From: Verrucomicrobiales bacterium
GTDB taxonomy: Bacteria > Verrucomicrobiota > Verrucomicrobiia > Verrucomicrobiales > V1-33
Assembly: GCA_046155625.1 (NCBI GenBank)
Contig: JBJXFS010000112.1
Span: 46,841-110,840, forward strand
DNA: 64,000 nucleotides
Direction of reading: 5' to 3'
A program made the position numbers and the translations under genes. Below are positions 51,601-59,988 of this stretch, piece after piece. The notes under the pieces are model-generated. The model ran no database searches. It saw only the letters and a list, made by a program, of their open reading frames with translations, and was not told the origin of the DNA. The number at the start of each line of letters is the position of its first letter. Within the stretch, counting starts at the first letter, position 1.

Positions 51601-54600
51601 GACATCCTCGGCAATGTCACGGAAACCCGGTATCTCGGCAATTCCACCGTGGTCGAAGTCGTCAATCCAAGACTGTTCCTCAGCACCATGGTTTATGATG
51701 CGCTGGGCCGGCTGGTCGAAATGCGCGATCCCTCCGGCAAGAGCGTCTTCTATGGCTATGATGCCGTTGGAAATCGGATCTTCGAGCGCGACCGCCGGGA
51801 CATCATCACACGTCGCGATTTCGACGCGCGCAACCTCCTGCTCAGCGAAACCCAGGCCGCGGGCACACCGGATGAACGGGTTTCCCGCTTCCAATACAAT
51901 GAGATGGGGTGGTTGGTGACAGAGATTCCGTGGCGCGGGGTGGATTACCGCACCGAGTACGTCATGGACGGGCATGGTCGAATCCTCACGGTACGCACGT
52001 TCTCGGGCACACAGATTGATGAGTCCCACATGACGTATGATGCTTTGGGCAACCGGACAACGATGACCGATCCGCGCGGCGCCTATTATCGTTGGGAGTA
52101 CGACTATGATGGATCCAACCGTGTCGTCGAGATCCGCTCGCCTGCAGGCACGCCCGCGGCTCCTCAGCAACTGACCGAGCGCTTCGTTTACAACGACAAC
52201 GGCGACACCGTGGAGGTGCACGATGTGGAAGGCAACGTCATCACGCGGTCCTATGACTTGGTCGGACGGCTGACGTACGAATCGCGGTCCAACGAGCTGG
52301 GCGGGGAGCTCGAATGGTCGTGGGAATTGGTCGACGATCCGCAGGTGGGTCACCACGTGATTGAGCGCGACCCGCTCGGCACTATTGCTTCCGTGGTCTA
52401 CTACGACGCCCTGAGTCGCGTCGTCCGCATCGAAAACCGCACGACCGGCACGCGAACCACTCAATACGACGCCAATGGCAACGTCGTTCGGGAAATCGAC
52501 GGCGCCACCTCCAAGGAGTTTGTCTACGACTCACTGGATCGCCCGGTCATCGAGCGTGACGCCCTCGGGCGGGAATGGCATTACAGCTACGATGCCAACG
52601 GCAATCTGCGGCAATCCACCGACCCCGAGGGACGGTTCCGGCGTCACACCTACGATTCCCTCAACCGGATCGTTCTCACCGAGGACCGGCGGGGCACAGT
52701 GCAGCGGCTGAGCTACGATGCCGCCGGCAATGTGGTGACCATCACGGACGGCGCCGAGAATTTGACCACGCGAGTCTACGACGGACGCAACCGCCTGATC
52801 CGCGAATTGAATGCGTCAGGAACCCGCCAGATGACCTGGGACGGGATCGGCAATTTGATCGAATCCGTCGATCGCAACGGCCGGACCATCCGCTACACTT
52901 ATGACGCCCGGGGGCTGACGCTCACCGAGGAGTGGGTGGTCGGAAACAGTGTGGTTCAGACCTTCGCCTTCACCTACGACAATGCCGCGCGGTTGATCCG
53001 GGCGACCGACGGCAAGAACGAATTGACATACACCTATGTCACCGATGGCACGGGCCGCCTTCTCTCGGAAACATCCAATCACCTGGGCACTTCCGGCCTC
53101 TTCCGCATCGATTATACCCCGGACGTGGTCGGCAACGCCCGCCAGATCGACCTGCTCGTCGATGGAATCCTGGTTGCCTCCAACCGGATGGACATGGATG
53201 CGGTCACCAACCGATTGATGGCGATCACCCAGAGCGGACCTGGCCTGACGAACAAGTCGGTGCGCTTTGGGTACACTCCGGGCTATTTGCGCGTGGAGAG
53301 TGTCACGCGTTCGGCCGGAGTAGGAGTTTCCGTCGTGACTCAGATCGGCTACGACCAGCGGAATCTGGTCAGCTCCATCGTCCATCGCACCGGGACCGTG
53401 ATCAACCGGCACGATTACACCTATGACGATGCGCACTTCATTACCACCGCCACGGATCTGTTTGGGAAGCGCACTTACGCATACGACGCTTCCGGTCAGC
53501 TCGCTGGGGTCGATCACACAACTCCCGGTTTGACCGACGAAGATTTTTCGTATGACCTCGCCGGCAATCCGCAGGGGCAGGGGTATGTGCGCGGGGCCGA
53601 CAACCGCCTGCTGCAAACGCCTGAATTCAGGTACACCTACGACGCGGAAGGAAATCTGATCGAGTCCCGCAAATCGACCGATGGATCAAGAACCGTCTAC
53701 GAGTGGGATCACCGCAATCGCCTGATCGCGGTCCGGGCCTTCAATGCGGCTGGCACGATGCTTCGGCTGGTCACCCATGAGTATGACCCGCTGGATCGCC
53801 GGATCACGATGACCGTGGAAACGTTCGGCCCAGTCGGGACCACATCGATCCGCCAATTTGCCTATCTGGACGACGATGTCTGGCTTGAATACGCCGAAGG
53901 CGCCGACGGCCTGCGCACGCTCGACGCGGTGTACCTGCATGGCCCCGGCGACGACCAAGTCCTGGCCCGCGAGGGCGGCGGCCGAGTGTACTGGTACCTG
54001 GCCGACCGGATTGGAAGCATCCGCGACATCGTTAATGGGCAGGGCGCCGTGCTTGACCACATCCAGTACGACGCCTTCGGTAAAATCCTCCAGCGGACGA
54101 ATCCCAGCCTGCCGAACCGCTATTTCTTCACCGGTCGCGAATTCGACGCCGCGACCGAACTTTATTTCATGCGGGCGCGGTATTTCGACCCCGCCACCAA
54201 GCGCTTCATCTCGGCGGACCCCATGGGCTTCGCCGCCGGTGACGCGAACCTGTATCGATACGCCGGAAACAACCCGGTGCGTTTCACGGATCCGCGCGGC
54301 ACGGAGGCCAAAGACTCGAATGACCAAGGATGGTTCGCCTCTGCGAAAAACATTTTCAGCAATTGGTTCAGTGGCGGCGAGAACAAATCGGCCGCCGCCG
54401 AGAAGCCGAAACAAGGGGCCTGGGACTTGATCCGCGGCTTCACCCAGTCCTTCATCGTGGACCCCGCCCGGGAGTTGCTCGGCACGGTCTTCGACGTCGC
54501 CGCCATGGGAATCGGCCTAGTGGGTACCACGGCGATCGACTCGGTTTTCGGGACGAAACTGAGCGACAAACTGGTACAAGGGAACTGGCCGATCAGCACC

Positions 54601-59988: not shown

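Follow-up and report, generated by a model that had tools for sequence, protein, structure and literature searches.

How a bacterial Rhs protein accommodates some 1,900 residues of polypeptide behind its core is the question raised by a 64,000-nucleotide stretch of DNA from a Verrucomicrobiales bacterium (contig JBJXFS010000112.1 of GenBank assembly GCA_046155625.1, positions 46,841 to 110,840 of the forward strand; hereafter the window), nearly all of which is filled by two plus-strand open reading frames (ORFs), A and B. Structural work describes the cages of bacterial Rhs and teneurin-like proteins as closed all around a small C-terminal toxin and regards exit of the chain as a feature of animal proteins, the teneurins and SGS1 (PMC13018210, PMC9935623). 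The first-pass annotation of the window had drawn attention to the size of the A and B tails and had offered either an enlarged cocoon around an unfolded cargo or a chain that leaves the shell and stays tethered to it as in teneurins. We found that the tail of B is continuous with its core, that the catalytic residues of the aspartyl autoprotease are retained, and that the same layout, with a hypervariable cassette between the Rhs core and a conserved end module, recurs in relatives from several phyla. We propose that A and B are giant secreted surface proteins whose tail would be threaded out of a cage with an intact autoprotease, a reading to which we assign an even chance of being correct.

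Post-core tails and catalytic residues

ORF B runs through the core and the tail without interruption (12,763 codons, zero internal stops; Table 1), and the tail comprises 1,895 aa including the Thr at the boundary or 1,894 aa after it, the length originally reported. Third-position GC (GC3) is the highest and second-position GC the lowest in the B frame at the boundary and throughout the entire tail. Because GC3 stays in frame over this whole region, a missed stop or frameshift after the core, or a separate downstream gene, one of the circumstances that had been named as refuting the idea, is unsupported. In ORF A, GC3 moves from ~nt 19000 to the frame of a minus-strand ORF (19241-20029), which forms a pair of divergent paralogs with the plus-strand ORF 20019-20744 (36% identity over 135 aa, E=3e-11). 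Because of this shift and of the paralogous minus-strand ORF, the last ~325 codons of ORF A are probably an antisense open run and not genuine coding sequence, and the functional A tail probably ends near its dockerin pair at ~1,863 aa, close to the length of the B tail. The figure of up to 2,187 aa given earlier for A thus describes an open frame correctly and overstates the coding tail.

The Rhs-associated cores of both proteins lie well above the curated cut-off of NCBIfam TIGR03696 (Rhs_assc_core, 32.5 bits). When the core was aligned to score the catalytic Asp residues, as had been suggested, the Arg and both Asp were found to be present, those of B lining up with R2103, D2116 and D2140 of the solved Bacillus teneurin-like protein (BiTLP), for which catalysis and cleavage after L2144 have been demonstrated (PMC13018210). 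The two DPxG elements are where they had been claimed to be, DPMGF at aa 10841 and DPRG at aa 10865 in B and, behind an Arg at 13346-13348, DPIGF and DPSG in A, with Thr as the next residue in each protein. Cleavage of B is predicted from this alignment to occur directly after Thr 54301-54303.

Similarity between A and B persists for ~150 aa beyond the core boundary, at ~40% identity in the core and first tail residues, and this part of the tail is hydrophobic (Table 1). In B it holds a charge-free stretch of ~44 aa with prolines mid-way (IGYFAGMVLLGAAALTVALPVLAYTWPIFVGGSLIASAAYLATG) that looks like a helical hairpin, and comparable post-core segments occur in A and most relatives, with hydropathy peaks of 1.6-2.2. 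A phmmer search of tail aa 1-250 against the PDB gave no match to SGS1 at E<=10.

Relatives, cassettes and the end module

Relatives were collected in an exhaustive phmmer search of 1.84 billion representatives with a query made of the last 79 core residues and tail residues 1-1,121, which gave 77 matches at E<=1e-30; the relatives analyzed here are the best 150 of ~104,000 matching representatives (most of them matching via the core), together with A and B. An HExGH motif is present in 122 of these sequences, and a Rhs core lies upstream of it in 42 of the 122, A and B included. The 42 members with this layout span the Planctomycetota, the Verrucomicrobiota and some Proteobacteria, among them Novipirellula artificiosorum, Rhodopirellula baltica, metagenome-assembled genomes of Planctomycetota, Verrucomicrobiota and Burkholderiales, and an Olavius-associated proteobacterium, and their annotations read 'hypothetical', 'dockerin type I domain-containing', 'WapA', 'tandem-95 repeat' or 'RHS repeat-associated'. 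The layout is recurrent and not a one-off. Where a core-containing sequence among the best 150 hits lacks the end module, its tail is of ordinary length (28-338 aa). In N. artificiosorum (protein WP_146529910.1) the ORF is complete, with 3,655 codons and with RHS, TEN_YD-shell and terminal Dockerin_1 matches. The R. baltica homolog was called as two genes: on PPHI01000043.1 (1-18848), the YD repeats that terminate the 4,412-aa upstream gene stop exactly at the start of the 3,615-aa homolog (P0020), and both pieces probably belong to a single gene of ~8,000 aa that a frameshift or the gene calling has broken within the YD repeats and not at the core.

A word-indexed protein search returned nothing for tail aa 1-810, the HEFGH module or the cassette alignment; because the exhaustive search finds dozens of relatives at 35-45% identity, these nulls reflect the prefilter and not absence. 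Genome and metagenome scans with the end-module and cassette alignments yielded no related loci. In the literature, queries combining Rhs with Planctomycetes, giant genes, dockerin or PKD turned up no description of kilobase-scale post-core Rhs tails, and a paper on planctomycete giant genes makes no mention of Rhs. The earlier remark that neither suggested arrangement had been seen described for a bacterial Rhs protein consequently holds for the literature searched, although the layout is not unique to this genome, being present in the databases under uninformative names.

The catalytic Arg and both catalytic Asp residues are kept in all 42 members with this layout; a few read DS, DA or DL in place of DP, and the Asp itself is never lost. 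Because the catalytic residues are kept at cage identities as low as 32%, selection for catalysis appears to have acted on them. The residue after the last Gly, by comparison, is L, M, F, N, T, H, K, Q, Y, R, E or S in the 59 core matches of the set, so that the Thr of A and B, which had been singled out as a departure from the usual Leu or Trp, is uninformative. We considered Thr as a mark of lost cleavage and rejected it, since the 59 core matches have no fixed residue at this position and SGS1 has Q.

The distance from the core to HExGH is bimodal, with 489±75 aa in 20 members and 888±73 aa in 22. The shorter class is paired with YD spans of ~1,260-1,620 aa and the longer with spans of ~2,060-2,640 aa, the ratio of spacing to YD span being ~0.36-0.45 in both; a Spearman test of YD span against spacing in a crude 'complete' set was not significant (n=12, rho=0.39, p=0.21).

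Windowed identity between A and B is 32-43% in the cage, falls to background (17-28%) over the ~650 residues of the cassette, and reaches 58-68% in the end module, this last level resuming just ahead of the HEFGH motif and continuing through the PKD array. The cassettes of the 42 members fall into at least 20 unrelated families, the largest of which (ten members) contains B, while A is a singleton. As far as the sequences go, a scaffold followed by a hypervariable cassette and a conserved terminal module is the pattern of a polymorphic toxin with an internal variable part. The alpha/beta domain of the B-type cassette carries an invariant Gly pair in an RGTxGAS loop, followed by a DxD pair and a Glu. 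In an AlphaFold2 (AF2) model of this cassette, with a mean predicted local distance difference test score (pLDDT) of 56, the Gly loop falls on a strand-loop-helix, the DxD pair on a second strand and the Glu on a third. A strand-loop-helix, a DxD strand and a third strand with a carboxylate constitute the arrangement of Pol-beta-type nucleotidyltransferases, and the domain is possibly a nucleotidyltransferase-like enzyme, a guess from motifs. It gave no PDB profile, Foldseek, Pfam or NCBIfam match, the Foldseek output for a model of pLDDT 56 being noise. Pfam and NCBIfam searches found nothing in the A and B cassettes even at E<=1, and Pfam gave nothing for nine cassettes of other types and nothing consistent for 12 B-type members. 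In three cassettes outside the B-type cluster (P0031, P0010 and P0017) we observed G[GS]…[ST]D[VFY]D[FL], as in IRGSSVTN…LSDVDFYF of P0031, which hints that nucleotidyltransferase-like motifs may recur across cassette types. The A cassette also contains a 78-nt tandem repeat of 2.3 copies (15173-15351, plus strand) with units of the form ARAALGGISLGxxLTGAERAARAT.

The end module consists of folds typical of extracellular proteins, and the modules named in the first-pass annotation (HEFGH, beta-sandwich, five PKD domains and the dockerin-like pair of A) are real as judged by Pfam, AF2 with Foldseek, and motifs. The H, E, H and G of HExxHxxG are invariant in 39 sequences, and a downstream His (~40 residues on) and a DLM motif are nearly so. 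An AF2 model of the HEFGH domain with the beta-sandwich, built from 39 aligned homologs, reached a mean pLDDT of 81.7, and Foldseek matched the whole model to pro-meprin alpha (prob 0.95), meprin beta (0.75) and an astacin zymogen (0.44). We use the label metzincin-like rather than metzincin because the canonical third zinc-ligand position is Asn in both A and B. The C-terminal Ig-like part of B is weakly similar to the domain preceding the dockerin pair of A. Among the best 150 hits, the same end module also forms the C-terminus of at least 19 long proteins in which an Rhs core is lacking and the density of YD motifs is at background.

Proposed placement of the tail relative to the cage

At perfect packing the whole B tail (198 kDa) would occupy ~240,000 cubic angstroms (A3), the part ahead of HEFGH (91 kDa) ~110,000 A3 and the hydrophobic segment (20 kDa) ~24,000 A3. 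The cavity of BiTLP measures 44,000 A3, which its authors regard as a size limit keeping bacterial C-terminal domains near 15 kDa (PMC13018210). In Tc toxins, type VI secretion system (T6SS) Rhs proteins, BiTLP and SGS1 the post-core chain starts in the lumen (PMC13018210, PMC9935623). Because the volume of the tail far exceeds a cavity of 44,000 A3, the end module would be expected to lie outside, with the chain crossing the wall. An enlarged cocoon holding the whole tail, as first suggested, is untenable on this comparison, the more so because the last ~1,000 aa also close non-Rhs proteins.

In the layout that we propose, an Ig-like stalk with a beta-propeller would be followed by a ~2,500-aa YD cage with the Rhs core and then by the ~1,900-aa tail, which would begin inside the cage, where the core places its own C-terminus. 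The chain would be cut after DPRG-T; the lumen would retain the hydrophobic segment with its helical hairpin, perhaps together with some of the hypervariable cassette; and flexible linkers would carry the remaining chain out through an opening in the cage wall, so that the end module (metzincin-like domain, CBM-like jelly roll, five PKD domains, and Ig-like domain or dockerin) would sit outside. The variable cassette would be the payload and the outside module would bind or anchor.

Several points count against this proposal. Neither in the window nor in three relatives does the downstream region hold a conserved immunity-like gene, although a diverged one could have gone unrecognized; this weakens the case for an antibacterial toxin. 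None of the cassettes searched matched a known toxin family. With Asn at the third ligand position, the protease activity of the HEFGH domain is uncertain. That the two length classes co-vary with cage length may point to enclosure of a larger share of the cassette than we assume, or may simply reflect two lineages. Finally, whereas the continuous frame, the core with its catalytic residues, the identities of the modules, the recurrence, the diversity of the cassettes and the size argument are shown, we infer the cleavage, the placement of parts inside and outside, the wall opening, the toxicity and what the end module does.

The same findings bear on three other explanations. A teneurin-like tether, in which the autoprotease goes unused, the chain stays continuous, the tail serves as an extracellular adhesion or enzyme arm and the cage holds no payload, would repeat what metazoan teneurins do (PMC13018210), and it would accord with the extracellular-type modules in the C-terminal half of the tail, with the failure to find an immunity gene and with the atypical Thr at P1. 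Teneurins, however, have lost the last catalytic Asp, which is kept here without exception despite cage identity down to 32%; no particular residue is kept at P1 in the family, and in SGS1, where mass spectrometry indicates cleavage at this site, it is Q (PMC9935623); and a hypervariable cassette right behind the core is a hallmark of a payload. We regard the tether as unlikely, and of the earlier suggestion that the chain exits the shell and stays tethered we favor the exit and doubt the tethering, given the conserved Asp. Similarly improbable, in our estimate, is a more limited cocoon in which the ~2,500-aa cage encloses the entire ~800-900-aa pre-HEFGH region in unfolded form with only the end module outside. 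The common length of unrelated cassettes (888±73 aa) and the shorter YD spans of the 489±75 class, with a similar ratio in both classes, are what a capacity limit would produce, but 91 kDa requires 2.5x the BiTLP cavity even when perfectly packed whereas known cargos fill their cages loosely, the co-variation rests essentially on two lineages, and the B-type cassette looks folded in its low-confidence model, with a helical part and an alpha/beta domain.

An artefact, that is, a missed stop, a frameshift or an assembly chimera joining an ordinary Rhs gene to a downstream gene, might be suspected from the occurrence of the end module by itself in non-Rhs proteins, from the end of ORF A, which does run into antisense sequence, and from the two gene calls in R. 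baltica. Two diverged paralogs and 40 independent database clusters from several phyla and assemblies nevertheless agree in their uninterrupted layout and in its spacing, no break in GC3 periodicity occurs at the junction, and the R. baltica split lies upstream in the YD repeats; we therefore consider an artefact extremely improbable.

The threaded, autoprotease-bearing surface protein that we prefer might in addition act as a 'threaded' delivery device, in which a stored cassette and a membrane-inserting hairpin would be held in the cage while the outside handle would bind the surface of the target or of the producer and trigger the release of the payload or pull it out. This addition is a tentative one, and we would sooner bet against it than for it. 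If it were true, a bacterial Rhs lineage already had the shell-exit architecture, which only metazoan teneurins and the SGS proteins of insects have so far been known to possess.

The picture of fully enclosed bacterial toxins would change with a recurrent bacterial family that combines at least ~1,000 residues outside the cage, behind an intact autoprotease, with a polymorphic cassette between two conserved parts. Such a family would offer a bacterial model for the threading of a chain through a YD cage, would bear on the origin of the teneurin and SGS architecture, and would turn more than 20 cassette families into a pool of candidate effectors. Among the giant genes of Planctomycetes and Verrucomicrobia that lack an explanation, some would thereby gain a concrete architecture, and the idea is directly testable in cultured species with homologs, R. 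baltica and N. artificiosorum.

Flanking features and known systems

The stalk of B begins with an N-terminus of the LEPRILLSA type, followed by beta-helix repeats, CARDB, Big_5, He_PIG, Big_9 and cadherin-like domains. At aa ~250-1600 (window ~22500-26500, plus strand) we observed about six highly similar beta-helix repeat units of ~190 aa each, a period beyond the range of the tandem-repeat tool, and downstream of them arrays of Big_5, CARDB (6+), He_PIG (8) and Big_9 (6). Paralog A aligns to B from B residue 6498 onward (blastp), and the first ~270 residues of ORF A are 71-87% identical to B 6470-6770 as against just 32-43% in the YD cages, a mosaic pointing to gene conversion or a recent exchange where stalk and cage meet. 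The stalks of both A and B contain an internal dockerin-like EF-hand pair (GDIDGDRDVDGTD…DVNRDxAINAAD), and the upstream piece of the R. baltica homolog likewise carries Pfam Dockerin_1. The propeller region of B also gives weak SGL/Lactonase matches in Pfam, and family searches returned no NHL match to it. The run of YD motifs in B begins at aa 8311; Pfam assigns 29 stretches of B (E=3.7e-195) and 23 of A to RHS_repeat, and a sequence search of the PDB with the B YD region yields T6SS Rhs cages, a teneurin-like protein and SGS4. TEN_YD-shell (PF25023) is on record for the relatives P0016, P0001 and P0020, and Pfam did not report it for B at E<=0.01.

B is followed by genes for a phosphoribosyltransferase and a sulfatase, and A by genes for PEP-CTERM-like proteins and an unassigned membrane protein; no TcA or T6SS partner is present in the window. 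Together with the relatives and the N-terminal motif of B, these flanking genes indicate a bacterium of the PVC group, most likely one of the Planctomycetota or else near to them. The product of 20019-20744 has a signal peptide and a PEP-CTERM-like end (IPEPRIPTLLLAAAVSLLVRRSR). Between A and B, 20816-21568 (plus strand) encodes a predicted membrane protein of 250 aa with coding-like GC3 and no family match, which could be an immunity or accessory protein.

Table 1. Positions of the features of ORFs A and B in the window
Feature	Position	Strand	Basis or remark
ORF A	2-20035	+	Open from the first bases of the window; 5' end outside the window
Stalk EF-hand pair	A aa ~265-300 (~880-990); B aa ~6735-6770 (~41900-42010)	+	Sequence motif
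Rhs-associated core of A	13241..13468	+	TIGR03696 69.3 bits; ends exactly at DPSG
Functional tail of A (probable extent)	13469..19057	+	Hydrophobic segment, cassette, HEFGH, jelly roll, 5 PKD, Ig-like, dockerin-like pair
Unrelated cassette of A	13922-15928	+	A/B comparison
HEFGH of A	16238-16252	+	
Dockerin-like pair of A	18884-19057	+	Relatives carry Pfam Dockerin_1
Open-frame extension of ORF A, probably noncoding	19058..20035	+	~325 codons, antisense to 19241-20029 (-)
ORF B	21697-59988	+	12,763 codons/aa, zero internal stops
YVTN-type beta-propeller, upstream of B shell	44206..44736	+	NCBIfam TIGR02276 28.0 bits, cut-off 27.85
YD/RHS-repeat shell of B	46627..54066	+	~2,480 aa; 2,557 aa counted to core end nt 54300
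Rhs-associated core of B	54067..54300	+	TIGR03696 83.6 bits; ends exactly at DPRG (…NNPVRFTDPRG)
Predicted autoprotease residues of B	Arg 54178-54180, Asp 54217-54219, Asp 54289-54291	+	Alignment to BiTLP
Thr at P1 position (Leu in canonical Rhs)	54301..54303	+	Aligns with BiTLP L2144, SGS1 Q2733
Hydrophobic/amphipathic helical segment of B	54433..54870	+	Tail aa 45-190; Kyte-Doolittle peak 2.2
Variable cassette of B	54775..56718	+	Tail aa ~159-806; unalignable with A (blastp gap)
Alpha/beta domain of B-type cassette	55918..56580	+	Common to 11 relatives at same position
Invariant residues of alpha/beta domain	G554, G557; D606 56116-56118; D608 56122-56124; E697 56389-56391	+	
Gly/Ser/Pro-rich linker before end module	56620..56715	+	GSLIQSENRGSGGQLSGNGGLIGSPPPLLSVD; pLDDT <50 at model start
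Metzincin-like domain of B	56716..57399	+	HEFGH at 57025-57039
CBM-like jelly-roll beta-sandwich	57457..57909	+	Foldseek prob 1.0 to CBM27, CBM4, CBM32
Five PKD domains of B	57943..59330	+	Pfam PKD_4 E=5.4e-33, also Pfam PKD; five (V/I/W)xWGDG-type cores
Pro/Gly linker, C-terminal Ig-like domain, remnant acidic LDGDDD	59371..59985	+	Read from sequence

By their defining features, as read from the protein sequences, A and B are members of the Rhs/YD family. They share with the canonical Rhs and TcB-TcC toxins (T6SS Rhs, WapA, ABC toxins) the YD repeats, the Rhs_assc_core, the DPxG…DPxG autoprotease and a variable region directly behind the core. In the canonical proteins, however, the toxin is terminal, comprises a few hundred residues and is enclosed, and T6SS, TcA or another partner is needed and an immunity gene is usual; A and B miss these features (small terminal cargo, immunity gene or partner). 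The nearest solved structure is BiTLP (PDB 9pt5/9ifo; PMC13018210), the best PDB sequence match of the B core (E=9.6e-18), which resembles A and B in its adhesin-type N-terminus, beta-propeller, YD cage, autoprotease, polymorphic post-core region and hydrophobic segment after the cleavage site. Bacterial teneurin-like proteins (TLPs) nevertheless have a C-terminal domain that averages ~15 kDa, is fully enclosed in a cage with no opening and is followed by an immunity gene, whereas the B tail is of 198 kDa, a conserved module lies behind the variable part, and no immunity gene was found; furthermore, the propeller of B scores as YVTN-type (28.0 against a cut-off of 27.85) and that of TLPs is NHL. 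Of the features by which TLPs were recently defined, A and B lack the small enclosed C-terminal domain and perhaps also the NHL type of propeller. TLPs have been reported from six phyla, and Planctomycetota is not among them (PMC13018210). In metazoan teneurins, as proposed here for A and B, the chain exits the YD cage at an opening, with folded domains on the outside (PMC13018210), but teneurins have lost the last catalytic Asp and are uncleaved (PMC9935623), while the triad of A and B is intact, and the outside domains of teneurins, ABD and Tox-GHH, are small and unrelated, Pfam finding neither here.

The remaining comparison is with SGS1 of the mosquito salivary gland (PDB 8fjp; PMC9935623), a protein of bacterial origin in which ~230 residues of transmembrane-like helices cross the lumen to an opening and a further domain lies outside (PMC9935623). 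SGS1 differs from A and B in that ~630 aa follow its core (230 aa of helices plus Tox-SGS) as against ~1,900 aa, its tail is without sequence similarity to that of B, and its outside domain is removed by furin in what is a eukaryotic protein; it is also without a metzincin-like, CBM, PKD or dockerin module and has no known polymorphic cassette. It is like A and B in its large Tc-like cage with one or more beta-propellers, in the catalytic Arg, Asp and Asp, in the non-Leu residue after DPxG (Q in SGS1, T in A and B), and in the hydrophobic helices directly after the cleavage site, which in A and B are recognized by hydropathy alone. Because the catalytic triad is conserved and a hydrophobic segment directly follows the core, the SGS1 topology fits A and B best, and the two would represent an Rhs polymorphic effector with an internal variable part, topologically like mosquito SGS1.

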